Source of the DNA: an uncultured bacterium
Lineage (GTDB): Bacteria > Acidobacteriota > Thermoanaerobaculia > Multivoradales > JAHZIX01
Reading direction: 5' to 3'
Length of the DNA: 64,000 bases
Assembly: GCA_965368975.1 (NCBI GenBank)
Contig: CBDUPA010000013.1
Coordinates: 32,001-96,000 of the forward strand
Of the stretch, positions 37,585 to 55,843 are shown one piece after another (within the stretch, counting starts at the first letter, position 1; every line of letters begins with the position of its first letter). Both the position numbers and the translations under genes were made by a program. The notes beneath the pieces were generated by a model that was given only the letters and a program-made list of their open reading frames with translations, did not search any database and was not told the origin of the DNA.

Positions 37585-38028
37585 TCAAGCCCCCGGATCC
37601 TCCTCCAGCCGATCCGCGATCGATGCCGGGATCGGCACCGTCTTCAAGCCCTCTGGCAGCCCCATCAGGCAGCATGCAGCGGCTGTGTGGCCGCGCGCCA
37701 GCAGGCGGCCGTCGCAGTGGATCTCCCAGGCGTAGGTCATTGACGTCCGGCCCTTGCGACGGATGCGCAAGTGCACGTCGAGAACATCCTCGAAGCGCGC
37801 CGGTGCCTTGAAGTCAGCCGACGACGCGAGCCGCGGCCAGCCGGCACGCTGGCCATCGACCTCAAACTCGACGCTGGTGCCGAGCGAGCGCAAGAAGGCG
37901 TGCTCGGCCTCCTCGGCGAAAACGAAGTAGCGAGAGAAATGCAGGATGCCACCCATGTCTGTGTCCGCGAACTCGACCCGACGCTGGTAGTGGAAGTCGC
38001 GGACCTTCGGTGCGGGTAATGGGCTCAC
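37585..38028 (-). CDS. Acyl-CoA thioesterase (hot-dog, 4HBT/YbgC family)
   Basis: RRVEFADTDMGGILHFSRYF..AEEAE; GTGA-coupled. Confidence 0.88.
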   Translation of the reverse strand: MSPLPAPKVRDFHYQRRVEFADTDMGGILHFSRYFVFAEEAEHAFLRSLGTSVEFEVDGQRAGWPRLASSADFKAPARFEDVLDVHLRIRRKGRTSMTYAWEIHCDGRLLARGHTAAACCLMGLPEGLKTVPIPASIADRLEEDPGA

Positions 38029-39362
38029 GCGGCCCTCCCTGCGGCTTGGGTCACCAGCTTCTCGTAGATGTCCAGCGTCCGTCGCGCCATCGCCTCGTCA
38101 CTGTGTTCCGTGTGCACGACCTTGCGTGCCCGCTCCCCCATGCTGTGACGGTGCTCGCGGCTGCGCATCAGCAACATCAACGCGGCAGCGACGGCGTCCG
38201 CGGATTCAGGTTCGACGAGCAGGCCGCCGCCGGTGCGTTCCAGCATCTCGGGGAAGACCCCGTGGTGAGGCACGACGACCGGGACGCCAGCGGCCTGTGC
38301 CTCGAGCAGACTCAATCCCTTGGATTCGCGGTAGACAGTGGGCACCGCCACCGCATCGACGCTGCGCAGGAGCGCCAACTTGCCCGCCCGGTCGACCTCA
38401 CCGAGCATCTCGACCTGCTCCGCCAACCCCCACTCCTGCAGTCGTGCCATCTGCTCGGCAGCGTAGGCCTGGTCCTTGGGCCCCAGGTACCCGGCGATGC
38501 GCAGGCGTACTCTCGACTTGCCAGCCTGTTCTGCCAGCTGACGGAAAGCCTCGACCAGGATGTGCAGGCCTTTCTCAGGACAGATGCGCGCCAGGAAGCC
38601 AATGGCGAATGGGGGCTCCTCCGCTGCCGCCTCGACAGTGGCGCGCGGCAAGGGCGTGCCGGGCGGGTCGAAGTCCTGCAACAAGAGACCGAAGGGAACG
38701 ATGTGAATGCGCTCGCGCTCGACGTGGAGGTAGTCGGCCATGAAATCGGCGTACTCGCTGCTGCCACAGAGGAAGGCGTCGGCATCGTGCACGCGCTCGT
38801 ACAGCACCTGGCGAGCGCGCGTCCGGTAGGGCTCGATGAGGTCGTCGAGGAAGATCTCCTCCCCCAACAGGGAGCACACGACCGGCACGCCGAGTTCCTG
38901 CTTGACGCGCCGTGCGACCCCGAGCAGCATCGAATTCTGCAGCTGCACGACGTCGGGCCGCAGATCGGAGCGCAGCCAGTCGACCAGGGCCTCTAGCTCA
39001 CTGGCGCTGTTGCCGTCTTCGCCTTCGAGCATGGTGACGGTCAGGCGACCGAGGTCGCGCGCGTCACTGCTGGCGCTGAAACGCGATACGTACTCGAGCA
39101 CCGAGCGGCGATCGAGCCAGCGGTGCAAGAAGCCGGGCAGACGCGCAAACCAGCGCGAGCGGCTCTGCAGATAGACGTTGACCGCCCCGAAAAACACGCG
39201 ATCCATGCTGACATTGGTCTCGTCGGTGCGCATCGGCGTGTAGAGCGGGATCAGCGCCGCATCGTGGCCGAGGCGTTGCAGCGCCGCCGCCAGGGTGTTG
39301 TCGTGGATACAGGCGCCGCACAGCATGCCGGCGGCACCCGCGGAGATCATGCCGACCTTCAT
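38025..39362 (-). CDS. Glycosyltransferase family 4 with N-terminal CxxCxxD motif
   Basis: GAAGMLCGACIHDN; ARICPEKGL; PTVYRESKGLSLLEAQAAGVPVV. Confidence 0.88.
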   Translation of the reverse strand: MKVGMISAGAAGMLCGACIHDNTLAAALQRLGHDAALIPLYTPMRTDETNVSMDRVFFGAVNVYLQSRSRWFARLPGFLHRWLDRRSVLEYVSRFSASSDARDLGRLTVTMLEGEDGNSASELEALVDWLRSDLRPDVVQLQNSMLLGVARRVKQELGVPVVCSLLGEEIFLDDLIEPYRTRARQVLYERVHDADAFLCGSSEYADFMADYLHVERERIHIVPFGLLLQDFDPPGTPLPRATVEAAAEEPPFAIGFLARICPEKGLHILVEAFRQLAEQAGKSRVRLRIAGYLGPKDQAYAAEQMARLQEWGLAEQVEMLGEVDRAGKLALLRSVDAVAVPTVYRESKGLSLLEAQAAGVPVVVPHHGVFPEMLERTGGGLLVEPESADAVAAALMLLMRSREHRHSMGERARKVVHTEHSDEAMARRTLDIYEKLVTQAAGRAA

Positions 39363-40846
39363 GTCGTGCTCCCGGCTCCCCGGGGAGCGAAGAAGCGCGC
39401 CACGTGTTCGCTCGACGGCGGGCGACTGGCCAACGAGACGACGATCAACACCAGAGCCGCGCTGAGCAGGATAATGGCCACGGGCATCACGCCGCTACCG
39501 GCCACCGTGTAGCCCGGCACCTGCCAACCGTGGACGAAGAAGAAGATCCACAGCACAATCACCGTCAACACCGCAGCGATGGCGCCGGCGCGCGTGCTGC
39601 GCCGCCAGTAGAGGGCGGCCACGACCAACGGCACCAGCGCCGCGAAGCCGGTGAAGGACCACACACCGAGCTTGAAGATCGACGCCGGCGACACCAGCGA
39701 CAGCAGGAAGGTCAGCGCCAGCAGGCCACCGACAAACCAGCGGCCGGTCCGCACCTGCGCGGCCTCACTCATTGTCTTGCCGCGAGCGTGCTGTACCGGA
39801 CGCACGACGTCCTGTGTGAACATCGTCGACAACGCCAACACCTGCGAGTCGAGCGACGACATGATGGCCGCGAAGACGCCCGCGGTGAGCAGACCGGCGA
39901 GCAGTTCCGGGGTGTGCAGACCGATCATGCGCACCAGCACCGAGCTGGCCTCCGGGCCCTGCAGCGCCGGAAAGTCGAGCTTGCCGAGCATGCCGATCAG
40001 GACACTGGGCACCCACACGATCACCAAACACAGCGGGTAGGCGATCATCGGCAGGCGAAAGCTGCGCGCGTCGCGGGCCGAGAGCCAGTGCAAGAAGATG
40101 TGCGGGAACATACCGACCGACAGCGGAATCAGCGTGTAGCTGAGGAGCTTTTGCCAGGGCATGCCGTCACCGCGCCGCAGCAACTCGGGTTCGACCGCCG
40201 CCAGGCGTCCCAGCGCCGCTTCCAGGCCACCAACTTGGCGCAGGATGAGGAAGAAAGTGACAGCGCCCAGCGTCATGAAGACCAGTGTCTGGAAGGTGTT
40301 GGCCCAGGCAGTGCCGCGCAGACCGCCATAGCTGACGTAGGTCAGGACAACGGCCGTGATGACCAGACTTCCCAACCACTGCGGCACCTCACCACCGGTG
40401 ATCTGCGCCACCGCGACGCCACCGCCGAGGACACCGATCAACAAGTATGGGATGACCAGGAGCACCAACACGGCGAACAGCAGCACGCCGAGGCCGCGGC
40501 TCTGGTAGCGCGCCTGGAAGAATTGCACTTGCGTCAGGTAGCCGTGCCGCTTCCCCACCGCCCACAGCCGGATGCCGACGAAGAAGAAGACCAGCGGCAC
40601 GACGATCGCCGATGCTGAGGCCATCAGCGCAAAGACGCCGACCCCCTGGCGGTAGGCCTCACCCGAGGCGCCGAGCAGTGAGAACGACGTCATGTGCGTA
40701 CCGAACAGGCTCATCAGCAGCACGAAGGGGCCAATCGTCCGCGTGGCGAGGAAGAAGTCCTCACCGGTACCTCGAAACAAACGATGGCTGAGCAAGCCGA
40801 TGCTCAAGACCAGCATGAGGTAGAGCACCAAGACTGCGATGATCAT
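39359..40846 (-). CDS. Sodium:solute symporter
   Basis: DFFLA.R.IG, YVSYGGLRGTAWANTFQ, FAAIMSSLDSQ, ALYWRR; about 13 TM. Confidence 0.92.
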   Translation of the reverse strand: MIIAVLVLYLMLVLSIGLLSHRLFRGTGEDFFLATRTIGPFVLLMSLFGTHMTSFSLLGASGEAYRQGVGVFALMASASAIVVPLVFFFVGIRLWAVGKRHGYLTQVQFFQARYQSRGLGVLLFAVLVLLVIPYLLIGVLGGGVAVAQITGGEVPQWLGSLVITAVVLTYVSYGGLRGTAWANTFQTLVFMTLGAVTFFLILRQVGGLEAALGRLAAVEPELLRRGDGMPWQKLLSYTLIPLSVGMFPHIFLHWLSARDARSFRLPMIAYPLCLVIVWVPSVLIGMLGKLDFPALQGPEASSVLVRMIGLHTPELLAGLLTAGVFAAIMSSLDSQVLALSTMFTQDVVRPVQHARGKTMSEAAQVRTGRWFVGGLLALTFLLSLVSPASIFKLGVWSFTGFAALVPLVVAALYWRRSTRAGAIAAVLTVIVLWIFFFVHGWQVPGYTVAGSGVMPVAIILLSAALVLIVVSLASRPPSSEHVARFFAPRGAGSTT

Positions 40847-41070
40847 GCCGCGGACTCCTCCTCGGAGACATTTTGCGGCCAGCCGACTCGCACTAGAAGA
40901 GCCATGACGCCGGCGACCAGGAAGCAGTAGCCAACGTGGTAGAGAAAGACCGCCGGTAGCCCGAGCCAGAGGCGGTCAGCGCCATCGACGGGCACCAGTC
41001 GCCACAACCAGGCGTCTTCGTGCAGCAGGTAGACGCTTGCCAACAGGAGTAGCAGAGGGAGCCGGCGCAT
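40843..41070 (-). CDS. Small 2-TM accessory protein of the SSS transporter (DUF3311-like)
   Basis: YLLHEDAWLW...LGLP..FLYH; ATGA-coupled directly upstream of the SSS gene. Confidence 0.75.
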   Translation of the reverse strand: MRRLPLLLLLASVYLLHEDAWLWRLVPVDGADRLWLGLPAVFLYHVGYCFLVAGVMALLVRVGWPQNVSEEESAA

Positions 41071-41087
41071 GGTTTCCAGCTGTTCTC

Positions 41088-42425
41088 TCAGACGCCGGCA
41101 CGCAGGTGTGCAGCGCCTTCCGTTACGTCCGCGGGGGCGCTGAGCGTGAAGGGTTCCAGGGCCCAGGCCCCTGGGATCTGCGTCATCTCGGCCATGTCCT
41201 CGAACATCCCGTCGAAATCATGATCGAAGACGCCGCCGAGCAGAATCTTGACGACATCGTCACGACGCTCGGGGAAGCGGCGCAGGAAGTCGGCAAAGCT
41301 GAAGTCCTTGTCGTAGAAGGCGTAGACTAGCTTGCGAAAAGCCTCCATGCCGCCCAGGAACTCCGCCTCGAAGGCGCCCAGCCGAGCGCCCGAGACATCG
41401 CCATCGGCGAGACCGGCGCAGATCGCGTCCGCCGCCATCTCACCGCTCTTGAGCGCCAGCAACACGCCGCTCGAGTAGAGCGGATCGATAAAGCCGTAGG
41501 CATCACCGACCAGTACCCAACCGTCGCCGGCCCGCTCACGGCTACGGTAGGTGAAGTCCCGCAGGACTTGCGCCGGGAACGCCTGGAAGGCCCCTTCAAG
41601 CCGCTCGGCCAGAGCTGGACACAACGCCACCTGCTCGTCGAAGACGTCCTGCGGCGGTCGCTTGTCGTCTGGCCGCACGAGGTATTCTAGCGGCGCGACC
41701 ACTCCAACACTGACCTGGTCCCCGGGCAGCGGGATGTACCAGAACCAGGAATCCTTGTCGCGCGTCTCCATCACCAGCGTGGCTCCCTCGTCGATACCAG
41801 GATCGCGCCGCGCAGCCTTGAAGTGGCTGAAGATGGCGGCGTTGCGCAGCTCCGGATCTTCCTGCCGCAGCCCGAAACGGCGTGCCAGCATGCCGCTCTG
41901 CCCGCTGGCGTCGACCACCACCGAGGCCATCAGATGCCGCGTCGATGTCGTGTCTCCATCCTGGGCAGCACCGCGGGCCGCCTTGACTTCGACGCCGACC
42001 GCGCGGTCGCCATCGAACAGCACATCGACAACCTTGACGCCGCGGTGGACCTCGGCACCCAGGCGGGCGGCGTTGTCGAGCAGCATCTGGTCGAACTCGG
42101 AACGCACCACCTGCCAGGTCTGCGGGTGCTCGAAGCCCTCGGCTTCTTCGAAGTAGAAGGGCGCCGAAGCCTTCTCCCCGCGGCTGAAGAACTGCACGCT
42201 GTACTTCTTGGTGAAGTGACTGGCTTGCAGCTGCTCGACCATGCCCAGCCGCTCCAACGTGTCATAGGTCGCCGGGATCAGCGACTCGCCGATCTTGAAG
42301 CGCGGCGAAGGGTCGCGCTCCAAGAGCAGCACACGCAGGCCTCGGTCGGCGATCAGAGCCGCTGCTGTGGCCCCCGCCGGGCCACCACCAACGACGATAA
42401 CGTCATAGCTGTCGGACTGGAACAT
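41088..42425 (-). CDS. Flavin-dependent halogenase-like oxidoreductase
   Basis: GGGPAG, RFKIGESL, FTKKYSVQF (Lys in the catalytic position), WFWYIP (WxWxIP), GDAYGFIDPLYSSGV. Confidence 0.85.
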   Translation of the reverse strand: MFQSDSYDVIVVGGGPAGATAAALIADRGLRVLLLERDPSPRFKIGESLIPATYDTLERLGMVEQLQASHFTKKYSVQFFSRGEKASAPFYFEEAEGFEHPQTWQVVRSEFDQMLLDNAARLGAEVHRGVKVVDVLFDGDRAVGVEVKAARGAAQDGDTTSTRHLMASVVVDASGQSGMLARRFGLRQEDPELRNAAIFSHFKAARRDPGIDEGATLVMETRDKDSWFWYIPLPGDQVSVGVVAPLEYLVRPDDKRPPQDVFDEQVALCPALAERLEGAFQAFPAQVLRDFTYRSRERAGDGWVLVGDAYGFIDPLYSSGVLLALKSGEMAADAICAGLADGDVSGARLGAFEAEFLGGMEAFRKLVYAFYDKDFSFADFLRRFPERRDDVVKILLGGVFDHDFDGMFEDMAEMTQIPGAWALEPFTLSAPADVTEGAAHLRAGV

Positions 42426-42458
42426 GGTCTCTCCTCGGGTTGCATCCGTGGACGGCGC

Positions 42459-43802
42459 TCAGCCGATCTGCAGGCTGACCAGGACTTCTTCGTCGCGCAC
42501 GAACAGGCGGTCACCGACCAGGGTCGGCATGGTCCAGGTCTTGCTGTCGAAGAGCTGCAGGCGATCCTGCTCCTTGTAGCCTTCGGGCGTTGCCTCGACT
42601 AGTACCAGCTGCCCCCGCTCGCCGAGCACGTAGAGGTAGCCGTCGGCATAGACCAAAGAGCCGTGACCCAGGCCACGTTCGGCCCACACTTGCTCCCCGT
42701 CAGAGACGCGGATGCACTTGAGCGTCTTGTTGTCGAAGCCGTAGAGGTGGTCACCGAGCAAGATCGAAGAGCTGAACTGATTGCGCATGCGCGGGTTGTT
42801 CCACACCTCACGAACGCTGAAGCCGTCCCCCTCGCCGCGCTGCAACTCGAGCAAGGCGGCACCGGTGCTGTAGCCGGAAGCCACGAACAGGCGGTTGGGA
42901 GCGATGAAGATCGGCGTCGCGGCATTGACGTCGTAGTCGGTACGCCAGTCGTGCTGCCACAGCACCCGACCATCGGCGGGCGCCACACCCACCACCTTGG
43001 CGGCCAAGAAGAAGACGATCTGCCGCACGCCATCGACCTCGATCGGCAGTGGTGCCGAGTAGCCGGCGCCATCGTCGCGACCGGCGGAGGTCGTCCACAC
43101 GGTCTCGCCCGTCTTCTTGTTCAGCGCCACGATCGAATTGCTGCCGGCGCCACCGACGTCGACCAGGAGCAGGTCGCCCTCGACCAGCGGCGCCATCGAG
43201 ATGCCCCAGGTCGGAATGCGCGCGCCGAAGGTCTTGATCAGGTCGACGTGCCAGCGCTCCTCCCCATCTTGGACGCCCAGGGCATAGAGTTGCCCCTGGG
43301 CACCCAATGCGTAGACCGTGTCACCGTCGATCGTCGGGGTCGAGCGCGGCCCGTCGCCGAATTGGTTGCGGAACACGGCATCCAAGCGCTGCTCCCACAC
43401 GCGCTCGCCCGAAGCGGTGTCGAAGGCGCCCGCGAACTCACCATCACCGCGACTGTAGAGCGTGAAGAGCCGTCCCTGGGCGATCGACAGCCCCGAGTAG
43501 CCGCCACCGACCTCGGTGCGCCACAGCATCTTCGGACCGGCGTCCGGCCAATCATGCAGCAAACCCGTGGCTGGCGACTTGCCGTCTCGCTGCGGCCCGC
43601 GGTACTCCGGCCAACTGCCCTCGACGGGCGTCGGTGCGGTGCTGGTGCCGGTATCGGCTGTCGGTAGGGCATCGGCCTGCGAGGCCGTGCCATTGCAGGC
43701 GACCAGCAGGGCGGCGGACGCAAGCACGAGCAGCATCACGGCGACCAGAGGCTGGGTGCGAAGGCGAGAGCGAAGGGATGAAGAGCGGCGGTCGGGCATC
43801 AT
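42459..43802 (-). CDS. PQQ-like beta-propeller lipoprotein
   Basis: Lipobox LVAC; WPEYRGP.RDG; GPRSTP; repeated A...TG...W blades. Confidence 0.85.
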   Translation of the reverse strand: MMPDRRSSSLRSRLRTQPLVAVMLLVLASAALLVACNGTASQADALPTADTGTSTAPTPVEGSWPEYRGPQRDGKSPATGLLHDWPDAGPKMLWRTEVGGGYSGLSIAQGRLFTLYSRGDGEFAGAFDTASGERVWEQRLDAVFRNQFGDGPRSTPTIDGDTVYALGAQGQLYALGVQDGEERWHVDLIKTFGARIPTWGISMAPLVEGDLLLVDVGGAGSNSIVALNKKTGETVWTTSAGRDDGAGYSAPLPIEVDGVRQIVFFLAAKVVGVAPADGRVLWQHDWRTDYDVNAATPIFIAPNRLFVASGYSTGAALLELQRGEGDGFSVREVWNNPRMRNQFSSSILLGDHLYGFDNKTLKCIRVSDGEQVWAERGLGHGSLVYADGYLYVLGERGQLVLVEATPEGYKEQDRLQLFDSKTWTMPTLVGDRLFVRDEEVLVSLQIG

Positions 43803-43808
43803 GTTCTC

Positions 43809-45278
43809 CTAAAGTCCGTCCGGTGCATCGGGGGGGAGGGTCCCGGCGGCTCCGGGATGGGCTTCTCCGCTACCCTTCGACGCGCGACCGGTTTCGGGTT
43901 CAACTTCGGCGTCACAGAGACAATCTTGCGCTGCCTCGGTGGCACCCGGCGGGGCGGTTCCAGTGACCGCCGCCAGCTTGCGCAGTGCCGACGAGCGCAG
44001 GTCCAAGCGTACCAGTTCCCCGTGAGTGCTCGACGCTCCACGGCTCGCTGCGCTCGCGGCAGTACCGCGCAGGTAGAGGAATCCATCGGCGAGCGCTGGC
44101 AAGGCCCAGGTCTTCCCCTCGAAGACTTGCAGACGCCCGAGTTCACGGTATGCCTCCGGCGTCGCTTCGGCCAGCACGAGCGTGCCTTTCTCGCCGTAGA
44201 GCAGCAGCCTGCCGTCGGCGAGGAGCACCGAGCCCTTGCCGAGGGCGGGCCTCGCGTCGCGGCCGCGGCCCCGATCCGCCCAGCGCGTCGCACCGCTAAC
44301 GGCGTCCAGGCACTTGAGGGTGCCATCGTCGAAGCCATACAGGTGGCCGTCGTGATAGATGGCCGAATGGAAGTGCGTCTTGATGTCGCGGCTCCGCCAC
44401 AGAGCCTGCGCACTCGGCTGACCGTCCGTGGCCGTCACTTGCAGCAGCGCCCCGCCGACGTCGTAACTGGCCGCAACAAAGACACGGTCGTTCGGCAGCA
44501 CCAAGGGGGTAGCGATGTTGGTGCCGTAGAAGGTATCCCACGGATCGTGCCAGTAGCGCGTGCCGCTTTCCGGGTCGATGCTCGTCAGACCGGCGGCGTG
44601 GAAGAAGAGCACCTGCCGAACCCCAGCCAATTCAGCGATCACCGGAGCCGCATAGCCGGCGCCACCGGTGCCATCGCGCCACAGCAAGCTGCCGGTTGTA
44701 CGCTCGAAAGCGGCAAAGGTGCCCGTGTCTCCACCGACCTCGACGATCACCTTGCCTCCCGCCGGATCACGGACAACCAGGGGCGAGCCGGAATAGCCGA
44801 AGTGCGGTCCCTTGCCGCCGTACTCGGCGACCAGATCGTGCCGCCAACGCTCCACGCCCTCGACCGCATCGGCCGCCACCAGCACGCCGGTTCCACTGAG
44901 AGCGAAGACCATGCCGTCGTCGACGGTCGGCGTCGCGCGCGGACCGTCGCCCTGGTCGTTGCGCAGGACAGGGCTCATGCGCAGGCGCCAGACGCGGGCC
45001 CCGTCTTCGGCGCGCAGGCAGGTCAGGTACTCGTGTCGATCGTCGGCTTCCTGCGTATAGAGCAGCCCACCGACCACCGCGACGCTCGAATAGCCGGCAC
45101 CGAGCGGTACGCGCCAGAGCTCCGGTGGTCCCTCGGCAGGCCAGGTCGTGAGCAGGCCGTCTTCGGTCGAGATTCCGTCGCGGTTGGGGCCCTGGTATTG
45201 CGGCCAATCGGCGGCCAGGAGGAAAGGGAGCAGGACGCTGAGGAACCCTGCAAGAGCCAACCTTCCTATGCCTCTCAC
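43809..45278 (-). CDS. PQQ-like beta-propeller protein, secreted
   Basis: Signal peptide then ADWPQYQGPNRDG; GPRATP; paralogous to the neighbouring gene. Confidence 0.85.
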   Translation of the reverse strand: MRGIGRLALAGFLSVLLPFLLAADWPQYQGPNRDGISTEDGLLTTWPAEGPPELWRVPLGAGYSSVAVVGGLLYTQEADDRHEYLTCLRAEDGARVWRLRMSPVLRNDQGDGPRATPTVDDGMVFALSGTGVLVAADAVEGVERWRHDLVAEYGGKGPHFGYSGSPLVVRDPAGGKVIVEVGGDTGTFAAFERTTGSLLWRDGTGGAGYAAPVIAELAGVRQVLFFHAAGLTSIDPESGTRYWHDPWDTFYGTNIATPLVLPNDRVFVAASYDVGGALLQVTATDGQPSAQALWRSRDIKTHFHSAIYHDGHLYGFDDGTLKCLDAVSGATRWADRGRGRDARPALGKGSVLLADGRLLLYGEKGTLVLAEATPEAYRELGRLQVFEGKTWALPALADGFLYLRGTAASAASRGASSTHGELVRLDLRSSALRKLAAVTGTAPPGATEAAQDCLCDAEVEPETGRASKGSGEAHPGAAGTLPPDAPDGL

Positions 45279-47852: not shown

Positions 47853-49123
47853 GATGCGCGGGCTCCTTGATGCACGGGGGATGTCGGCTCGCTGCGACGG
47901 CGCGGCTCGAGCGCTTCGAGATACAGATTCTCCAGGTCTTGCTCGCTCACCGGGCGTGGATTGAAGCCAGCGGTCCACTGCTCCATCGCCTCGGCGGCCA
48001 GGCGCGGCAGCGCCTCCGCATCGACTCCAAACGCCTGCAGACGGCCGAGACTGGCGGCACGGTTGAGCTGTTCGAGGCGCAGTGCCAGACGCTCTCCGGC
48101 TTCGTCTTCGCTCACCTCGAGGTCACTCGCCTGCAGCAACTCGACGTAGGCCGCGGCGGCACCGCTGGCCGGATCGGCGGCGTTGAAGCGCACCACCGGT
48201 GGCAACATCAAGCCGACGGCGAAGCCGTGCGGTACGCCGTGGCGGGCTGTCAGCGGGTTGGCGCAAGCGTGTGCGGCGCCGAGCATCGACAGCTCGATAC
48301 CGCTACCGGCGAGAAACGATCCAAGCAGCATGGCGCGCCGCGCCTGCGAATCTTCAGGGGCCACCAGGTAGGACTCGAGCGCGCCTTCCAGCAACCGCCA
48401 ACCCTCGCGCGAGAACAGCCGCGAAATCGGGTTGTGGCGCGTACTGACATAGCTCTCGACGGCGTGGGCCACGGCGTCGACGCCGGTGTGGGCGGCGGTC
48501 TCCCGCGGCACCGACGAGATCAAACACGGGTCGAGCAGGACGCTGCGAAAGCGTGCCTTACGGTCGCCGCATGCCATCTTCGTCTTGCTGGCAGCCTGGG
48601 AGATCAGTGCGTAGCTCTGGGCCTCGCTGCCGGTGCCAGCGGTGGTAGGCACACCGATCGACGGCAGCATCGGCTGGCTTGCCTTGCCGCTGCCCCAGTA
48701 GTCTTCCATGCAGCCACCGTTGCTGAGCAGGAAGTTGATGCCTTTGGCGCAGTCCATGGCCGACCCGCCGCCGAAGCCCAAAATCAGATCCACTCGACCC
48801 CAGGCCTCGGCCACGGCACGGCCGGCCTCGACATGTGCGGTCGTCGGATTCGACTCGATGTCGGCGAACACCCGTACTTCCACACCAGCGTCAGCCAGGA
48901 CGGCCAGGGCTCGATCTGCGTGACCAGCCGCCTGCACTCCGGCATCGGTGACCAGCAGCACGTGCACCGCGTCGGCTGCGTCCCCACCAGTGGCCGCGGA
49001 CTCGCGCGCCAGCACGGTGCGCACTTGTTCGCCCAGCCGATCGAGGATGCCATCGCCGAACAGCACCTCGGCACCGTTCAACTCGGCGGTCCAGGAACCC
49101 GACGGTCGCAGATGAAAGTCCAT
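47849..49123 (-). CDS. Iron-containing alcohol dehydrogenase
   Basis: GGGSAMDCAK, PTTAGTGSE, DAVAHAVESY, GAAHACANPL...HG; AAGGAG RBS before ATG 49123. Confidence 0.93.
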   Translation of the reverse strand: MDFHLRPSGSWTAELNGAEVLFGDGILDRLGEQVRTVLARESAATGGDAADAVHVLLVTDAGVQAAGHADRALAVLADAGVEVRVFADIESNPTTAHVEAGRAVAEAWGRVDLILGFGGGSAMDCAKGINFLLSNGGCMEDYWGSGKASQPMLPSIGVPTTAGTGSEAQSYALISQAASKTKMACGDRKARFRSVLLDPCLISSVPRETAAHTGVDAVAHAVESYVSTRHNPISRLFSREGWRLLEGALESYLVAPEDSQARRAMLLGSFLAGSGIELSMLGAAHACANPLTARHGVPHGFAVGLMLPPVVRFNAADPASGAAAAYVELLQASDLEVSEDEAGERLALRLEQLNRAASLGRLQAFGVDAEALPRLAAEAMEQWTAGFNPRPVSEQDLENLYLEALEPRRRSEPTSPVHQGARAS

Positions 49124-49162: not shown

Positions 49163-49216
49163 GGCTGCAGCGATTTTGGCTGCAGCGATTTTGGCTTCAG
49201 CGAGGTTGGCTTCAGC
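49163..49216. repeat. 15-bp tandem repeat (about 3.6 copies), intergenic
   Basis: ggctgcagcgatttt x2, ggcttcagcgaggtt, ggcttcagc. Confidence 0.85.
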
Positions 49217-50723
49217 CGCCAGCGGCCTGGAAGGCTCGCTGACGGTACAAATGTTCGAACAGGCTGCCCTCGTGCGGCTGATCCCAGGCAATGTGCGCCG
49301 TCGCGATAGCCCCCAGGTTGAGGCGGTCGATGTGCGGACATTCAAGGGCCCGGCGCTGAAAGTCCGGGTCGTCGCTGATCACGCTGCCGACCAAGGTCGA
49401 GCCGATGCGTTGCAGCAAGTCCGCTTCGGGCACCTCGACCACCGTCATGAAGGGGAAGACGAATTCTGCACTGGCCAGCGGATGCTCGGGATCGTCGCAG
49501 CGGATCACCGTCGGCCGCAGGAAGGTGCAACCCGCTATCTCGGCGACACGCGAGGCGTCTCCTCCCTGTTCTCGACGCAGGCGTGCCGTGACATCCTCGG
49601 CGCCGTCCAGCTGTAGTTGTTGCTCGATCATAGCGTCGACGGCGTGCGCCACTGCCGGATTGGCGAAGGCGGCCAGGCTCGCGTCGGGATCGTCGAGCGG
49701 CCGCGGTTCGAGCACTGCCAGACGCTCCGCCAGCGCTTCTGCGAGCGCCCGCGCACGACGGCCCGGCTTGTGCGGGTCGGTCGGCAACCAGACGCCCGAA
49801 GCGTTGATGCACGAGCGGCCTCCGTTGGCTGCCGCGCTCTCCACCAGCATGTCGAGGTGCTGGTCCCAGGCGTCGGCGGCATCGGGAGCGAAAATCACCT
49901 TGCTCCAGCCCGGACCGTGCGGCTGCACGCGCGGATCCTTGGCGAATCTCTCCACCGTCGCGGCGTCGCCAAACATCATCGAGCGACCGCAGCGCTGCAA
50001 CACCATCGGGCCGGCCGAGCGATCGGCTGGGTAGAAGCTGATCGCCTCTCGCGGGCAGCCGGCGGCGTAGAGTGCTTGTGCTACCCGCAACGGTGTCCAC
50101 GGCTCGGTGCTACCGGGTTTGAGTACCAACGCGACCTTGAGCGGAATCGCCGGCAGCCACAGCGTGTGCACGCCGGGTGAATTATTGGGCAGCACAGCGC
50201 CGAGCGTCTCGGAAAGACGCAGGTAACTCAACTTGCGCGCGTCCTGCTCTCCCCAACCGGCGTCGAGAACGCTCAGATCGAGACCGCGGGTCAGGCCACC
50301 GAGCACGGCGTCCATATTCTGCAGCACACCCGCCACCTTGAACATGTTCGCGCGCGCCAGCGCGTGCGGCATGCCGGTGGTGGACGACAGCTGGTGTACG
50401 TAGTCCTGTGTGGACTGGGTCGTCTGCGCCCGGCTTGCCGATGCCGGCGCAGTCTCGTCAAGGGGTAACTCGGCATCGAGGAAAAGGGCGGCAGCGCGGC
50501 CGCAGATTTCGACCAGCTCGGCGACGGTAAACGCGTCGAGCGGCCGGCGCAGCGTCTCGGGTTCGCGCAGATCGCGCGAGATCATGCCCGCCGTCGCTTG
50601 ACTCACCTGCGCGACCGGCTCGCCAGTGCGCACGTCGGTCAGGGTTTCGAGCGCCAGACTCCGGTAGGGCCGTCCGGCGCGTAGCAGCGGAAGGTGCGGT
50701 AGCTGTTCCTGCATGCGATCCAT
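49212..50723 (-). CDS. Aldehyde dehydrogenase-superfamily protein (acylating / EhpG- or LuxC-like reductase)
   Basis: VLPNNSPG, VLKPG, NGGRSCINAS (catalytic Cys), EFVFP; HGPGWSK replaces the usual ELGG. Confidence 0.8.
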   Translation of the reverse strand: MDRMQEQLPHLPLLRAGRPYRSLALETLTDVRTGEPVAQVSQATAGMISRDLREPETLRRPLDAFTVAELVEICGRAAALFLDAELPLDETAPASASRAQTTQSTQDYVHQLSSTTGMPHALARANMFKVAGVLQNMDAVLGGLTRGLDLSVLDAGWGEQDARKLSYLRLSETLGAVLPNNSPGVHTLWLPAIPLKVALVLKPGSTEPWTPLRVAQALYAAGCPREAISFYPADRSAGPMVLQRCGRSMMFGDAATVERFAKDPRVQPHGPGWSKVIFAPDAADAWDQHLDMLVESAAANGGRSCINASGVWLPTDPHKPGRRARALAEALAERLAVLEPRPLDDPDASLAAFANPAVAHAVDAMIEQQLQLDGAEDVTARLRREQGGDASRVAEIAGCTFLRPTVIRCDDPEHPLASAEFVFPFMTVVEVPEADLLQRIGSTLVGSVISDDPDFQRRALECPHIDRLNLGAIATAHIAWDQPHEGSLFEHLYRQRAFQAAGG

Positions 50724-50741: not shown

Positions 50742-51830
50742 TCAGTAAACGCCGACCGTGACCGAGGTCTTGAGGCTGGAGAGCAGCCGCAGATTGCTCA
50801 CGCCGTCCCAAGGGTAGAGTGCCGTCGGTTCGGTTCGTTCACCTTCGTCGCGTTCCGGAAAGCGCGGCATGAAGAACTCGCGCGTCAGTGTGGTGAGCAA
50901 CACGCGACCGGTCTGTCCGTAGTCTACCGCCTTGTCAAGGTCCTCAGGGTCGACGATCTCGAAAATGGCGCGCGGAGCTGGCGCGTAGTAGGTGATCGTG
51001 TAGTCCTTGAGCTGCGGATCGAACGGCTTGGACTTGGCCAGCCCCATCAGGGTGTTGCCGTAGACCGGCACGAAGTCGATGCCCGGTACCAGCTCCTCGC
51101 GGGCGAAGCGGTGGAATTGCTTGTTCATCTCCGTGCCGCCGCAGAAGATGCCCCGGATACCCAGCTTGGCCAGGTCGACCTTCTCGCACAGCGCTTCGAG
51201 CAGCTTGGGCGTGGTGAAGATGCAGCGAATCTCGTGCGCGCGCAAAATGGTCAAGCCCTGGTGGATGACGTGTTCCTTGTACGCCTCCATCTCCTCGAAG
51301 CGCTGCGCCCTGAGCAGCTTGTTGACCCAGCGCGGATCGAGGTCGACGTGGAACGCAATACCACCGCGATATTGCGCCAGGTGCTCGATCGCCAGCCGCA
51401 GGCGACGAGGCCCCGTGGGCCCCAGCATCAACCAGTCGGCACCGCGCGGGAAGCCCTCAGAGTCGAGCGAGTCGGCCATCTCTTCGTAGTCGACGCGGAA
51501 GTCGTTGATGTTGATGCGGCTCTTGGGAACACCAGTAGAACCTCCTGTCTCGAACACGGAGACCGGCTGATCCGCTAGGGCCCGAGGCACCCAGCGGCGA
51601 ACCGGGCCACCGCGCAGCCACTCGTCTTGGAAGTGACCGAGCAGCTTGAGGTCGTCGTAGTTGCCAATCTCCTTGCGCGGGTCGAAGTCGAGCCCTCGCG
51701 CGTACTCGAGCCAGAAAGGGCAGCCACTGGCGGGATCGAAGTGCCAGGAGACCATCTCGCGGACGTGCTCGTCGAGACGGTCGCGGGCGGCGGCAATGGC
51801 GTCGGAAAGAGGGGTGCTGAGAGTATCCAT
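50742..51830 (-). CDS. Short adenylate-forming enzyme, EhpF-like / phenylacetate-CoA-ligase-like
   Basis: WHFDP.SGCPFW, ETGGSTGVPK (P-loop), DLDPRWV, YGNT, GRVLLTTL, ERDEG; lacks the small C-terminal ANL domain. Confidence 0.72.
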   Translation of the reverse strand: MDTLSTPLSDAIAAARDRLDEHVREMVSWHFDPASGCPFWLEYARGLDFDPRKEIGNYDDLKLLGHFQDEWLRGGPVRRWVPRALADQPVSVFETGGSTGVPKSRININDFRVDYEEMADSLDSEGFPRGADWLMLGPTGPRRLRLAIEHLAQYRGGIAFHVDLDPRWVNKLLRAQRFEEMEAYKEHVIHQGLTILRAHEIRCIFTTPKLLEALCEKVDLAKLGIRGIFCGGTEMNKQFHRFAREELVPGIDFVPVYGNTLMGLAKSKPFDPQLKDYTITYYAPAPRAIFEIVDPEDLDKAVDYGQTGRVLLTTLTREFFMPRFPERDEGERTEPTALYPWDGVSNLRLLSSLKTSVTVGVY

Positions 51831-51993
51831 GGAGTGCTCGGCCCGAGTGCGAGGTCAGCGGGAAAGCGCGCTGGTCGCGCGCCCGAAGGTGTCAACTACG
51901 ACTCTCCTGGTACGTCCGCGCGGTCGGCAAGGTTGCTTTGCCGTGCACCGCCGAGGTCGTTCGAAGATTCGTCTTCCGAGGGTTCGTAGCCAA

Positions 51994-52020
51994 CCGACCG
52001 CCGGATGTGCCGGCGGTCGG
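51994..52020 (-). terminator. 11-bp perfect hairpin between the propeller pair and the enzyme operon
   Basis: CCGACCGCCGG-ATGTG-CCGGCGGTCGG, 44 nt after the 52065 stop; only a weak U tail. Confidence 0.55.
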
Positions 52021-52064
52021 ATTCTGTGTCGTTGTGCAGTCTACCGCCCGAAGGCGCGGCGGAC

Positions 52065-53573
52065 TCAGCCGTCCGACGGCTTCAGCATCGCGCCTTCTTT
52101 GAGCGCGAACAACTGCGTGCGGCTCAGTATGTAGAGCACGCCGTCCTGCGCCACCGGTGTGGTGTAGACAGCGCTGCCCAGGTTGATCTCGGCCAGCACC
52201 TTCTTGGTCTTACTGTGCTCGAGCACAACCAGGTCGCCGTCCTCGTCGCCCAGGTAAACCTTGCCATCGGCAACGAAGGGCGAACCCCAGACCGCGGCGA
52301 AGGCGTCGTAGGTCCAGTAGTGCTCACCGGTATCGGCGTTGAGCGCGTAGAGGAAGCCAGACAGGTCTGCGGCGTAGGCGATGTCGTCCTTGATCGCGAC
52401 CGTCGAGATGGTGCGGTGGAAGTCTTCGCCACCGCGGTGCCAGATCACCGCCTTGTCGGTGACGTCCCCACGCTGCTTGCCGTCGACCACCCACAGGTGT
52501 CCCGGTCCCTCACCGTGCTCGGGATCCTGGCCGACCGCGATGTAGACACGGTCCTTGTGAATCACCGGCGTCGAGATGATGTTGTTGCGCGTGCCGGCGC
52601 CACCGAGACGCCACTGCGAGTCCTTGGGGTTGCAGTCGAACTTCCAGATCAGGTCGCCGGTCTTGGGGTCGAGCGAGTAGAGCCAGCCATCGCCCCCCGG
52701 GTAGATCAGCATCGGCGTGCCGCCGATGACGCCATACGACGGGTTCGACCAGCTACCGTGCAGGATGTTCTCGCCCGGCATGGTGTTGTCCCACACCAGC
52801 TTACCGGTGTCCTTGTGCACCGCGACCAGGCTGGGGCCGAAGGGCGACGGCACGTTGACGTGGCCCTCGTCGACACCATTGCCCGTCACCGCGTACACCA
52901 GGTCGCCGACGATCAGCGGCGAGCCGGCAGCCAGGTTGTGCGGGAAGACGTCCAACTCGCCGATCAGGTCGAGCGACCAGATCAGATCCGGGCCGTTCTC
53001 GGACTTGTCGTTCTCGTCCTTGATCGGACCGTCGTTCTCGCCGTCGTGCAAGCCCTCGGTGTCGGCGCACACGAGTTCAGCGCGGTTGGACACGTAGTAG
53101 AGGCGATCCCCTTCGATGTAGGGCGTCGAGCAGATCCCCTGCAGTGGCCAGTCGTGCACGCGGCCATCGGGCAGTTTGGTGTGGGTGGACTGCCAGAGCA
53201 GCGCTCCGTTCTCGAGGTCGAAGGCCATGATCACACCGCGGTCACCGGTGAGCTGGGGGTTCTTCTCGGCCTCGTTGTTGGTGCCGACGTAAACCTTGCC
53301 ACCGGCCACGACCGGTCCAGCGTAGCTTTGCGAGCCGACGCGGGCTGTCCACAGGATGTTCTTGCCACTCGCCGGGTCGAATTCGGTCGGCAGACCGGTC
53401 TCGTCGGACACCATGTTGCGGGACGGCGTGTTGCCGTACATCGCGACTTCCTGGGCCTGCACGGCCGGAGTTCCTACCAAGCCTGACGACAGAAGGGCCG
53501 CCACCAGGATCAGGGCCAGCGCCCACGCTTGCACCATCGGGATCGAGTTTGCGCGTCTCGAGGTCGTGCTCAT
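52065..53573 (-). CDS. PQQ-like beta-propeller protein, secreted
   Basis: Signal peptide ending VQA; MYGNTPSRN; repeated blades; acidic insert DTEGLHDGENDGP. Confidence 0.85.
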   Translation of the reverse strand: MSTTSRRANSIPMVQAWALALILVAALLSSGLVGTPAVQAQEVAMYGNTPSRNMVSDETGLPTEFDPASGKNILWTARVGSQSYAGPVVAGGKVYVGTNNEAEKNPQLTGDRGVIMAFDLENGALLWQSTHTKLPDGRVHDWPLQGICSTPYIEGDRLYYVSNRAELVCADTEGLHDGENDGPIKDENDKSENGPDLIWSLDLIGELDVFPHNLAAGSPLIVGDLVYAVTGNGVDEGHVNVPSPFGPSLVAVHKDTGKLVWDNTMPGENILHGSWSNPSYGVIGGTPMLIYPGGDGWLYSLDPKTGDLIWKFDCNPKDSQWRLGGAGTRNNIISTPVIHKDRVYIAVGQDPEHGEGPGHLWVVDGKQRGDVTDKAVIWHRGGEDFHRTISTVAIKDDIAYAADLSGFLYALNADTGEHYWTYDAFAAVWGSPFVADGKVYLGDEDGDLVVLEHSKTKKVLAEINLGSAVYTTPVAQDGVLYILSRTQLFALKEGAMLKPSDG

Positions 53574-55843
53574 TCGCTTACCATCACTTTCACGTTGTCA
53601 TAGTAAATGTCTACCGGCGCGTAGCCGTAGAGGCCGGGGCTGCCAGTCTCGATTGGCAGCGTGTCTTCCACCACCAGAGTCCAGTCGCCCGGCTCGGCCT
53701 CGTCTCGCGGCCACACTTTACCGCGGATGATCGCCTTGCCTTCCGCCTGGTCGACGCGCAGTTTCATGGTGTACCAGCGGTCCATGTCCCAGGCATAGTC
53801 GATCCGCTGCATCATCCGTAGCTCAGCCGCCCAGGAGCGAACTTCCAGGCGCTGGTGATTGCCCTGCAAGTCGAGGGTGTAGCCGCCATTGATGACACCC
53901 GCGTCAGGCCTGCGGCGGCCTTCCTGGGTGCCTTTGAAGTCGACCTGGACGGTATAGCCGGACATGTCGGTGGGACCGAGGAAAGGGGTCGAGCGCGGTA
54001 CGCCCCGCGGCGCGCGCGGCATGTGCAAGACCTTGCCGGTCACCGCCGGATCCTCGATCTCGGCAACCGCAGCGCGGCCGGCGATACCGATCCAGATCTC
54101 AGGGACCGAGCCAACCTCGAGAGCTTCGAAGTCTTCCTCGATCGGCAGCGGACCGAAGACGCGCAGCCACGACTTGGCCGCCCGCTCCCCGACCTTGGCG
54201 ACGACTTGGCCGGTCTGGCCCGCGGTCGCGGCGTCGGTGCTGAACGTGCCGTCGCCATCGACGGCACCTTGCAGACTCTCCAGCGTCCAGGTGACATCGT
54301 CGACCGGTCCCAAGTAGTTGCCGTGCGCGTCATAGCCACGCACTTCGAAGTCCTGCGACTCCCCGGAGCGCAGCAGCTGTACCGCCGGCACCACCTGCAG
54401 TTGCGCCAGGGTTCCTTCGCCGCCAGTCGGTTTACCAGTCGGGTTGGCAGTAGCCTGCGCGGCGGGCGTGGCGGCCTGCATCAGCTGCGGGAACGGCTGG
54501 CTCTTGTCACCCAGCGCATAGATGCCTTCTTCCGTCGTGAAGTAGATGCGGCCGTAGGCGATCGCCGCCGAACCGTAGATCTCAGCGTAGCGGCCGTCGG
54601 GCATCTCGATATGTACCTCGTGCACCACCGTTCCCTCGGCAGCTTCCCCGCCCTCCGTGGGCGGCTCGACGATCAGCACGTTGCCGTTGACCTCATTGAT
54701 GTAGATGCGGCCGTCGGCCCACACCGGTGAAGCCTTGCCGACATTGCCGTAGTTGACTTCCCACAACGGCTTGCCGCTGGACGCTTCGAGGGCGTGCAGG
54801 TTGGCCGAATTGTCGGCCACGTAGAGGCGGCCCTCGTGCAACAATGGCGTCGGGAAGCCCGAGGAGATATCGCTACGCCAGCGCTCGTGTGTCTTGGTCA
54901 CGTCGCCGCTGCCGGTAGCGTCGATCGCCACCACGCGGCCCATCACCGCCGAGTCGATGTTTTCTTCGCTGTGCGCGGCGTAGACGGTAGCACCGTCCGC
55001 CACGACCGAGGCGTTGATACCGCGCTGGCTGAGGTGGAACTGCCACACCAGCTTACCGGTCCGTGACTGCAGCGCGTAGATCCAGCCATCGGCACCGCCG
55101 CCGACCACCAGCCGCTGACCGTCGACCTCGGTGATCACCGGAATACTCTGGGTGTTGAAGTCGGCGACGCCGGTACCAACGGTGGTGAACCACAGCACCT
55201 CACCGGTGCGCTTGTCGAAGGCGTAAAAGCGGTGCCGCGGGCCAGCTTCTTTGCCCCACATCTTGCCGATCAGACTGATGATCATGCGGTCTTCGTCGAG
55301 GATCGGCGTGTGCGTGCGGCCGCCATAGCCCGAGAAGCGCCCCAGTTCCTCGAAGGTGCGGCGCGTCCAGACGATCTCGCCGTCGCGATCGAAGCACACG
55401 AGCTGGCCATCGACGTTGGTGACGTAGAGGTAGCCGGTCTCGGGATCCCCCGCCACACTCCCCCAGCCAACCCGGTTGAAAGGCACCGTCGTGTTGTACA
55501 CGTTGAACGTGCGCTGCCACAGTAGCTCACCGCTCTCGGCGTTCCAGCACGCCACGATCTCTTGCTTGGTGGCGCCGTCACCCGTACGGCCGTTGGCGCA
55601 CGCGCGACCGTCGAAGACCGCCGGCGTCGAACGGCCGGTGAAGTCATGACGCCAGATTAGATGCTCGCCGTCCAGGGACCACGACGTGATCAGGTCGCTG
55701 GCCGTCGACACACCGGTCTGCTGCGGTCCGCGCCAGCCGGCCCACTCTTCCACCGCGGTCGCGGGTCCGGCCATCGCTACCGCCGCCAGGATGGCGATCG
55801 AGGCGGCGACGAGAGCCACCGCATACTTCAAATTTTTGCGCAT
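53570..55843 (-). CDS. Large secreted PQQ-like beta-propeller with C-terminal Ig-like and lectin/LamG-like domains
   Basis: GGAGG RBS, signal peptide, WAGWRGP, propeller blades, linker, then a beta-sandwich ending WYTMKLRV...GKVWP...YYDNVKV. Confidence 0.82.
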   Translation of the reverse strand: MRKNLKYAVALVAASIAILAAVAMAGPATAVEEWAGWRGPQQTGVSTASDLITSWSLDGEHLIWRHDFTGRSTPAVFDGRACANGRTGDGATKQEIVACWNAESGELLWQRTFNVYNTTVPFNRVGWGSVAGDPETGYLYVTNVDGQLVCFDRDGEIVWTRRTFEELGRFSGYGGRTHTPILDEDRMIISLIGKMWGKEAGPRHRFYAFDKRTGEVLWFTTVGTGVADFNTQSIPVITEVDGQRLVVGGGADGWIYALQSRTGKLVWQFHLSQRGINASVVADGATVYAAHSEENIDSAVMGRVVAIDATGSGDVTKTHERWRSDISSGFPTPLLHEGRLYVADNSANLHALEASSGKPLWEVNYGNVGKASPVWADGRIYINEVNGNVLIVEPPTEGGEAAEGTVVHEVHIEMPDGRYAEIYGSAAIAYGRIYFTTEEGIYALGDKSQPFPQLMQAATPAAQATANPTGKPTGGEGTLAQLQVVPAVQLLRSGESQDFEVRGYDAHGNYLGPVDDVTWTLESLQGAVDGDGTFSTDAATAGQTGQVVAKVGERAAKSWLRVFGPLPIEEDFEALEVGSVPEIWIGIAGRAAVAEIEDPAVTGKVLHMPRAPRGVPRSTPFLGPTDMSGYTVQVDFKGTQEGRRRPDAGVINGGYTLDLQGNHQRLEVRSWAAELRMMQRIDYAWDMDRWYTMKLRVDQAEGKAIIRGKVWPRDEAEPGDWTLVVEDTLPIETGSPGLYGYAPVDIYYDNVKVMVSE

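Follow-up and report, generated by a model that had tools for sequence, protein, structure and literature searches.

A multi-phylum bacterial operon joins putative acid-reducing, tailoring and glycosylation genes to a genome-wide family of exported propellers

Gene content of the operon

We analysed a stretch of 64,000 nucleotides (the window, G000:C13:32001-96000) from the genome of an uncultured Acidobacteriota bacterium (7.1 Mb, 99% complete), in which an 18-kb operon of 14 genes encodes five exported propellers (P1-P5) together with predicted acid-reducing, tailoring, transport and glycosylation proteins. All 14 open reading frames (ORFs) are intact and lie on the minus strand, running without internal stops from the ATG of P1 at 55843 to the stop of the thioesterase at 37585. 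In order of transcription they are as follows.

53570..55843, minus strand: P1, exported propeller of the pyrroloquinoline quinone (PQQ)-like type, 757 aa (PF13360 E 1.7e-30; signal-like segment)
52065..53573, minus strand: P2, exported 8-bladed propeller (AlphaFold pLDDT 89.3)
50742..51830, minus strand: EhpF/GriC-like truncated adenylating enzyme, 362 aa (PDB 3L2K/3HGU E 2e-41, residues 17-350)
49212..50723, minus strand: EhpG/GriD-like putative reductase of the aldehyde dehydrogenase (ALDH) fold, 503 aa (PF00171 E 1.5e-12)
47849..49123, minus strand: iron-containing alcohol dehydrogenase (Fe-ADH), 424 aa (PF00465, PF25137 above cut-off)
46704..47852, minus strand: P3, exported single-copy propeller, ACSF4 type (PF13570 188.6 bits vs cut-off 133)
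45275..46636, minus strand: HemN-like class C radical S-adenosylmethionine (SAM) enzyme (rSAM), 453 aa (PF04055 + PF06969)
43809..45278, minus strand: P4, exported propeller, P5 paralogue (41% identity)
42459..43802, minus strand: P5, exported propeller of an expanded genome-wide WPxxRGP family (AlphaFold pLDDT 94.6, eight blades)
41088..42425, minus strand: flavin-dependent halogenase-like protein, PltA/CndH type, 445 aa (best PDB E 8e-65)
40843..41070, minus strand: DUF3311-like small membrane protein, symporter partner (PF11755 E 9e-4; 19.7 vs cut-off 30 bits)
39359..40846, minus strand: sodium:solute symporter (SSS) (PF00474 E 2e-41)
38025..39362, minus strand: GT4 glycosyltransferase, core gene (PF00534 E 1e-31; N-terminal CxxCxxD)
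37585..38028, minus strand: hot-dog 4HBT/YbgC-like thioesterase (TE) (PF03061 above cut-off)

The original prediction had described 14 co-oriented genes in this order with six junctions coupled by 4-nt overlaps, and both points were borne out: there are exactly six such overlaps (P1/P2, Fe-ADH/P3, rSAM/P4, DUF3311/SSS, SSS/GT4 and GT4/TE), the remaining seven gaps spanning 6-234 nt. Its family labels hold in Pfam, NCBIfam and PDB searches, with DUF3311 falling below its cut-off so that the suffix "-like" is correct. All five propellers, which it had called secreted, pass the PQQ_2 gathering score and carry one N-terminal hydrophobic segment each. As it had also stated, no nonribosomal peptide synthetase, polyketide synthase or cyclase family was matched among the 14 genes, and because a core synthase is lacking standard cluster rules would probably miss the pathway. 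The nearest named relatives of the host genome are Acidobacteriota, mainly Thermoanaerobaculia.

The EhpF-like protein lacks the C-terminal subdomain, as does EhpF, and retains the adenylation motifs, with ETGGSTG, YGNT and ERD kept in 81 sequences; relatives at 33-36% identity are annotated as "arylcarboxylate reductase" or phenazine protein. Only 18 nt downstream, the ALDH-like protein keeps the catalytic Cys and Asn while the general-base Glu is replaced by His (58 sequences); in the PDB it comes closest to a CoA-acylating methylmalonate-semialdehyde dehydrogenase (E 1.1e-7). These features would fit a reductase acting on an activated acyl group. Together the two proteins have the sequence features of an EhpF/GriC-type two-protein carboxylate reductase, and the reduction of an acid expected in the original prediction, here by a putative EhpF/EhpG-type acid-to-aldehyde reductase, is supported by the 3L2K match, the retained motifs and the ALDH-fold neighbour. 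The Asp/His/His/His metal ligands of the Fe-ADH are kept in 41 sequences.

The halogenase-like, radical SAM and GT4 calls likewise stand, their motifs being intact. The radical SAM enzyme has the CxxxCxxC motif and a HemN_C domain and scores below the equivalog cut-offs of both HemN (169.7 vs 324.95) and HemW (156.2 vs 205.4); by class C precedent such as MqnK it would methylate a ring. Among the ten best PDB matches of the halogenase-like protein nine are halogenases or named halogenase-family proteins, K74 is invariant (27/27), the WxWxIP residues W227, W229, I231 and P232 are kept in at least 90% of sequences and GxGxxG is present. The related flavoprotein families QhpG, LodB and GGR score lower on this protein, all below cut-off. 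A second halogenase-like paralogue with 40% identity to it lies elsewhere in the host genome (G000:C5:140274-141413). GT4 has the GT-B domains with the Arg/Lys and EX7E donor-binding motifs and in addition a conserved CxxCxxD; across 47 sequences C15, D21 and E354 are invariant, and C18, R259 and E346 are kept in at least 90%. Judged by motif and family, the predicted modifications are methylation, halogenation and glycosylation. The DUF3311-like gene precedes SSS in relatives too, and TE sits between GT4 and the ATP-binding cassette (ABC) genes described below in most of the Acidobacteriota loci compared.

Conservation of the operon and scattered parts in the host genome

The EhpF-like protein matches at least 8000 protein clusters. 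GTDB genomes yielded 199 confirmed relatives of its gene; the best 80 (62-79% identity) were compared at the level of the locus. These 80 span Acidobacteriota, Latescibacterota, Gemmatimonadota, Poribacteria, Calditrichia and Planctomycetota. Where the downstream flank reaches at least 1.5 kb (69 loci), the ALDH-like gene is found in 60; among the 51 with at least 9.5 kb, ALDH, Fe-ADH, P3 and rSAM are all present in 32 and the EhpF-like gene stands alone in four; a P1 orthologue was found in 36 of 62 loci having at least 5 kb of upstream flank. Gene order is retained across Acidobacteriota, Planctomycetota, Latescibacterota and others. The operon is therefore real and common to several little-studied bacterial phyla, a conserved multi-phylum set as the original prediction required, and carriers were seen in two of the phyla it had named, Acidobacteriota and Planctomycetota, in a sample without Verrucomicrobiota. 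Upstream of the EhpF-like gene at ten Latescibacterota/Gemmatimonadota loci (L036-L046, L068), P1-P2 are replaced by a lactate-racemase-like gene, a PcRGLX-like gene and two Gfo/Idh/MocA genes.

The 18-kb pathway of the original prediction is incomplete as a system, since genes that are in the operon in relatives lie elsewhere here. A complete planctomycete version (L123) reads P1, P2, SSS, EhpF, ALDH, Fe-ADH, P3, rSAM, chorismate-lyase-like, halogenase, GT4, TE, EamA-like, PaaK-like, ABC ATPase and FtsX permease. Acidobacterial loci additionally have P5 and a TonB receptor ahead of the halogenase, and their last genes are GT4, TE, ABC and FtsX. In the host genome the TonB receptor is found at C2:100102-102303 (53% identity), the chorismate-lyase-like and PaaK-like genes form a pair facing another propeller on C15, the EamA-like gene accompanies a membrane-anchored propeller on C8, and C3 carries the ABC ATPase, a 1196-aa double-FtsX permease and a second Fe-ADH. 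The TonB receptor, whose gene comes just ahead of the halogenase at many loci, scores above the cut-off for siderophore receptors (TIGR01783, 249.9 vs 223.5 bits).

A DUF98-like gene lies between rSAM and the halogenase in planctomycete operons. The chorismate-lyase-like protein on G000:C15 has no Pfam match, matches Atlas clusters at 0.94-0.96, where PF01947/PF04345 are found in 11-19% of members, and its profile matches PDB 2NWI (E 8e-7), which we take to be a DUF98 structure; its identity as a chorismate lyase is a lead of moderate strength. Import of a carboxylic acid, as originally proposed, agrees with the two importer types in the system. Import is probably not the sole source, since the chorismate-lyase-like and PaaK-like genes belong to the system and the acid can probably also be made.

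MVD-like and isopentenyl-phosphate-kinase-like genes follow the thioesterase in the window (35559-37538, minus strand), and polyprenyl synthase and mevalonate-kinase-like genes precede the ABC genes on G000:C3 (L085:3575-6776). A mevalonate link to the pathway was rejected because no such neighbour recurs in the other compared loci and MVD is far from the permease in 5/5 near relatives; these genes look like a lineage-specific insertion, as if inserted at the TE-ABC junction and later split.

The propellers and their genome-wide family

The AlphaFold models of P2 and P5 are eight-bladed and closest to YxaL, BamB and tetrathionate hydrolase, followed by quinoproteins, with Z scores of 33-37 for YxaL and BamB and 28-30 for PedH, XoxF and QH-ADH. 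The best match of P2 is YxaL 7EQ5 (Z 37.1, rmsd 2.1, 334 aligned), and P5 aligns with YxaL at Z 34.9 (rmsd 2.6, 331 aligned). P2 has many invariant His, Asp and Asn residues (four His/Asp plus others are invariant among 39 sequences), a candidate metal or catalytic site, and is present in 24 of 26 EhpF-close Planctomycetota genomes. A lipobox (LLVAC) is possible in P5, and P1 has a C-terminal extension with a weak 3-keto-disaccharide-hydrolase/ConA-like match (PF06439 E 0.057, sub-cut-off).

While they share the eight-bladed fold of BamB, YxaL and PQQ dehydrogenases, the operon propellers are by cut-off and motif predicted to be neither BamB nor PQQ dehydrogenases. Their best score against BamB TIGR03300 is 152.9 vs a cut-off of 285.2 bits, with 19 family copies here where BamB is single-copy, and their best against PQQ-dehydrogenase TIGR03075 is 89.8 vs 480 bits; no vicinal Cys-Cys was found in any of the five. 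PQQ is an unlikely and unsupported ligand, because in this 99%-complete genome neither PqqC (best 40.5 vs cut-off 240) nor a PQQ dehydrogenase passes its cut-off. A protein-derived quinone cofactor, formed by a QhpG/LodB-type flavoprotein on the WPxxRGP Trp, is also not favoured: halogenases outscore the QhpG and LodB families, and the N-terminal segment of the propeller is ordered and structurally aligned with YxaL.

The host genome holds 19 members of the propeller family, 14 of them outside the operon (20 ORFs were listed, one unrelated Tat-type protein being excluded). Such proteins are usually annotated as BamB/PQQ-like. A WPxxRG-like motif is present in 18 of the 19, and the median pairwise identity across 17 aligned paralogues is 26%. 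One member (L155:7151-9394, G000:C1) fuses a Kelch propeller to a WPxxRG propeller downstream of a TonB receptor, and two scattered propellers adjoin very long ORFs of 5841 aa (G000:C6:92826-110351) and 8946 aa (C12:193734-220574). In another genome (G232, L100:10610-12253) the gene after a P2 homologue encodes a radical SAM enzyme that in NCBIfam comes closest to the tetraether synthase Tes (174.7 bits vs cut-off 450).

Co-occurrence of the propeller family with the pathway

In a sample of 151 genomes of the phylum Acidobacteriota, each at least 90% complete, the EhpF-like query matched 41 (40 at 57% identity or more, one at 36%) and P5-type propellers (E <= 1e-30) were found in 42; 40 genomes have both the propellers and a close EhpF-like gene, two are propeller-only and 109 have neither, so that propellers occur in 40/40 close-EhpF genomes vs 2/111 others. 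Carriers are multi-copy, with at least three matches in 39 of the 42 and a median of six among the matches listed (up to 12 per genome). In 131 Planctomycetota genomes (completeness not reported; propeller matches at E <= 1e-50) propellers are present in 26/26 close-EhpF genomes and 11/105 others. They are absent from all 13 planctomycete genomes having only distant (33-38%) EhpF homologues, so that these homologues, unlike the window subfamily, do not co-occur with propellers in this sample. The pathway fills whole families in the sample (8/8 and 4/4).

As P5 is itself inside the operon, the test was repeated with a non-operon paralogue (E <= 1e-8), which gave 17 matches in G127, where the operon is present, none in its same-family sister G115 and none in three further negatives of 6.4-7.8 Mb. 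Very small Fisher values overstate the case because related genomes are not independent, and the recurrence in two phyla together with the G127/G115 contrast is the stronger evidence.

In order to separate the parts of the pathway we used a hand-picked panel of 80 genomes, comprising 42 of 65 EhpF-close (EhpF+), 13 of 13 propeller-only and 25 of 203 negative genomes, one negative (G023) being flagged unpublished. The FtsX permease was found in 41/42 EhpF+, 13/13 propeller-only and 0/25 negative genomes (54/55 propeller-bearing), and GT4 in 42/42, 10/13 and 0/25 (52/55 propeller-bearing). P3 was present in 7/7 propeller-only genomes tested and 0/2 negatives. The halogenase (38/42, 0/13, 1/25), rSAM (39/42, 0/13, 0/25), SSS (39/42, 0/13, 1/25) and the chorismate-lyase-like gene (19/42, 0/13, 0/25, with a profile that includes sequences of five panel genomes) follow a different pattern. 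The system has two layers, a core of FtsX permease, GT4 and P3, and an aromatic front end of halogenase, rSAM, SSS and chorismate-lyase-like gene, and at the genome level the propeller family depends on the GT4 and ABC core. The link between pathway and propellers is stronger than first thought, reaching the whole genome-wide family. The idea that propeller-only genomes salvage the product by import was rejected, since SSS is found in 0/13 of them and they carry other front ends.

An alternative operon with an SHC-like module

In propeller-only planctomycetes the core belongs to another operon (L089/L090 of G161, L091-L097), which encodes an NHL-repeat protein, a small ferredoxin, a NapH-like membrane ferredoxin, a membrane-anchored propeller, NuoEF-like and NuoG/GltD-like redox proteins, P3, GT4, ABC, FtsX and a squalene-hopene cyclase (SHC)-like module, which suggests an NADH-fed electron path to the periplasm. 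P3 adjoins GT4/ABC here and belongs to the core with GT4 and the ABC exporter.

The SHC-like module consists of a DUF116-polyprenyl synthase, a prenyltransferase-fold protein, an SHC-like cyclase and a radical SAM enzyme, with GcvH-like, CobW-like and aminotransferase-V genes as recurrent neighbours. Queried with a sequence from one propeller-only genome, the DUF116-polyprenyl synthase was found in 16/42 EhpF+, 10/13 propeller-only and 0/25 negative panel genomes. In G213 it lies beside the P1-P2-SSS-EhpF block, in G182 beside the GT4-P3-ABC block. The core pairs with the aromatic-acid module, as in the window, and/or with the SHC-like module; mutual exclusion of the two is ruled out by the 16 EhpF+ genomes with the synthase. 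The SHC-like gene was not found in G163, G169 and G094 in a search without positive control, so that in some carriers neither front end was detected. The synthase was not found in 22 of 24 EhpF+ Acidobacteriota genomes. A DxDD cyclase-like gene with a DUF116-polyprenyl synthase occurs in Acidobacteriota and the Planctomycetes-Verrucomicrobia-Chlamydiae (PVC) group and is here linked to the core in other genomes; it was assigned to the "SHC-like" cyclase clade by family scores, and in the window and host genome neither the cyclase nor its prenyltransferase-fold partner has a match at E <= 1e-5. The clade has been published as being of unknown function, and main-text passages of the papers concerned make no mention of propellers, GT4 or an ABC partner (PMC7306690; PMC12414744).

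A matching locus in Tuwongella immobilis

The cultured planctomycete Tuwongella immobilis has 28 genes annotated as BamB paralogues and apparently carries a matching, protein-expressed version of the locus, matched to the operon by annotation, size and order alone. As tabulated (PMC8567305, Table S3), GMBLW1_45360-45160 starts with a propeller, a PaaK-like gene, two large PQQ_2 proteins, a pulG-like gene and a 45-kDa hypothetical protein, continues with a 14-kDa hypothetical protein, two proteins of ten transmembrane segments, ALDH, Fe-ADH, a propeller and a HemN-like enzyme, and ends with GcvH, a ferredoxin, a radical SAM enzyme, an SHC-like gene, two unrelated genes and a DUF116-polyprenyl synthase. 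Mass spectrometry, according to the same source, picked up both large propellers, the 45-kDa protein, ALDH, Fe-ADH and the HemN-like enzyme, but neither the SHC-like protein nor the P3-sized propeller. The Table S3 rows covering the locus hold no halogenase, GT4 or giant permease. With such an expressed locus in a cultured organism the question becomes directly testable.

Comparison with known systems

A truncated adenylating enzyme followed by an ALDH-fold gene is the arrangement of EhpF/EhpG (D-alanylgriseoluteic acid) and GriC/GriD (grixazone), as here. GriC/GriD are described as forming an acyl-AMP and then converting 3-amino-4-hydroxybenzoate to the aldehyde (PMC10179220), and ehpF and ehpG are listed as adjacent in a phenazine operon (PMC11278526). 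The window subfamily is nonetheless separate, its members being 50-79% identical to the window protein and the phenazine and Streptomyces homologues 32-36%, and unlike the ehp cluster it has no phz core genes among the 14 genes or the scanned flanks.

In mycofactocin and PQQ systems biosynthesis is encoded at one locus, which includes a radical SAM enzyme plus a glycosyltransferase or exporter, and the scattered, expanded clients are found only in carriers. A single biosynthesis and export locus with a scattered family that is lost without it follows this pattern, and as with mycofactocin the expanded family is confined to genomes with the GT4/FtsX core in the two phyla sampled. Among operon ORFs of at least 60 aa no peptide precursor or SPASM maturase was found, and the rSAM is HemN-like; unlike in mycofactocin, GT4 replaces GT2 and the clients are exported propellers; unlike the PQQ system, there is no PqqC above cut-off. 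We know of no BamB or YxaL precedent for dependence on a GT4 and ABC core, a further respect in which the operon propellers differ from BamB and PQQ dehydrogenases.

The planctomycete versions resemble baaAB of Planctomycetales strain 10988, where a chorismate-lyase-like gene beside a flavin halogenase is described for 3,5-dibromo-p-anisic acid (10.1101/723874). Compared by that description, baaAB consists of two genes and its BaaB shows about 44% similarity to Bmp5, whereas the window enzyme is PltA/CndH-like, and the passages describing baaAB make no mention of a reductase pair, GT4, ABC or propellers. A literature search, in which subscription journals were mostly not covered, returned no description of a system such as the one seen here; each enzyme comes from a known family, and the overall make-up seems undescribed.

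Proposed role of the operon

The best reading is that the operon constitutes an aromatic front end and part of the core of a larger system serving periplasmic 8-bladed propellers. The product would be a glycosylated aryl compound that is made, exported and loaded on the propellers as ligand or prosthetic group, a proposal we put forward tentatively, as one whose chances fall a little short of even. A hydroxybenzoate-type acid would be imported by the TonB receptor and SSS/DUF3311 or derived from chorismate by the DUF98-like lyase. It would probably be linked to CoA by the PaaK-like ligase; the halogenase-like protein and the class C radical SAM enzyme would tailor its ring, after which the hot-dog thioesterase would release it. 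The EhpF-like and ALDH-like proteins would then adenylate the acid and reduce it to the aldehyde, which Fe-ADH would convert to the alcohol, and GT4 would attach a sugar. Export by the dedicated ABC system would finally bring the product into the periplasm; P3 is its probable recipient there, and the scattered propellers would end up binding it. The acid is probably aromatic on the grounds of the EhpF match, the DUF98-like gene in operons, the PaaK-like pairing and the GriC/GriD precedent. This aromatic substrate, which we regard as fairly likely, is like the chemistry up to glycosylation and the order of the steps drawn from family precedent, and the export and loading step from co-occurrence.

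A bolder form of the same proposal, which we hold to be rather doubtful, is that the "BamB/PQQ-like" paralogues, present by the dozen in Planctomycetota, Acidobacteriota and related phyla, are periplasmic enzymes needing a new tailored aryl glycoside cofactor delivered via the ABC exporter and P3, with some lineages extending or replacing the aryl route by the SHC-like terpenoid module and an NADH-fed membrane redox chain.

Several observations weigh against a propeller-bound aryl glycoside. Conserved positions of the 17 paralogues are mostly structural Trp, Gly and Pro, with possible ligand contacts limited to two Arg, one aromatic and some Ser/Thr residues; a scan of 28 ORFs neighbouring scattered propellers found no shared redox partner such as cytochrome c; and the closest folds (YxaL, BamB, tetrathionate hydrolase, Rv3035) are cofactor-free and outscore quinoproteins. 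The genomes are related and hence non-independent, the panel was hand-picked, and with P4 and P5 in the operon one match per carrier is trivial, the multi-copy counts and the absence in negatives being informative. Co-occurrence gives no direction; the core could be acting on the propellers, or on a lipid, and not supplying a cofactor. The aromatic module is missing altogether from 13 propeller-bearing genomes, and a product common to all carriers would have to be accessible by more than one chemistry. The halogenase and rSAM were not found in three to four of the 42 EhpF+ genomes nor the chorismate-lyase-like gene in 23.

The alternative that survives best, although we judge it unlikely, is an envelope glycolipid or meroterpenoid-like lipid with an aryl head and, where the SHC-like module is present, a prenyl or cyclic terpenoid part, extracted from the inner membrane by a LolCDE/MacB-like ABC system, with the propellers as BamB-like carriers or scaffolds. 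FtsX-type permeases typically take lipid-anchored cargo, the closest folds of the propellers are scaffolds, and the DUF116 synthase is confined to propeller-bearing panel genomes, adjoins operon blocks in G213 and G182 and follows the radical SAM gene at the T. immobilis locus. Against such a lipid, the synthase was not found in most EhpF+ Acidobacteriota searched and the cyclase and its partner are unmatched in the host, Pfam revealed no acyltransferase, ketosynthase or UbiA gene among those of the operon, and the mevalonate genes beside the operon are specific to the host genome.

Less probable again is a secreted metal chelator or a signal or defence metabolite, exported by the ABC system and taken up again via TonB/SSS, with the propellers binding or processing it in the periplasm. 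The position and siderophore-receptor score of the TonB receptor would suit this, as would the PQQ-like propeller Rv3035 solved in complex with FecB (PDB 9P3F) and the planctomycete brominated p-anisic acid assigned to a chorismate lyase and halogenase pair, as summarised in 10.1101/723874. Carboxylate reduction, however, would remove a chelating group, and secondary-metabolite clusters are usually patchy while this pathway fills families and proteomes show its proteins without stated induction; the loss of dozens of unlinked propellers along with the core would be left unexplained. Uptake and detoxification or catabolism, with imported aromatic acids disposed of by reduction and glycosylation and the flavoprotein acting as a hydroxylase or reductase instead of a halogenase, is very improbable. 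Catabolic operons do commonly hold two importers along with an ALDH-fold protein and Fe-ADH, and SSS follows the aromatic module rather than the core, but biosynthesis is indicated by the chorismate-lyase-like gene, the class C radical SAM enzyme and carboxylate reduction at the expense of ATP; the halogenase motifs are intact and no ring-cleavage gene or regulator recurs in the loci.

The pathway is present in about a quarter of the sampled Acidobacteriota (40/151) and a fifth of the Planctomycetota (26/131), both abundant soil and marine bacteria. If a glycosylated aryl compound does serve the propellers, a large paralogue family now filed as BamB would be explained, the SHC-like cyclases, long unexplained, would be connected with a particular glycosyltransferase and exporter, and the existence of a new cofactor or envelope molecule would be predicted.

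Flanking genes and intergenic features

Upstream of the operon lie the following genes.

56020-57630, minus strand: NYN-domain protein
58042-61050, plus strand: DUF4132/HEAT protein
61079-62260, minus strand: DUF7005 protein
61949-63916, plus strand: TolC-like protein

The NYN gene, the sole upstream neighbour checked, recurs in none of the 80 related loci. Promoter and terminator scans gave no signal exceeding shuffled controls. The 234-nt gap between P2 and the EhpF-like gene (51831-52064) contains a G+C-rich 11-bp inverted repeat at 51994-52020, a possible internal terminator, processing site or repeat element.

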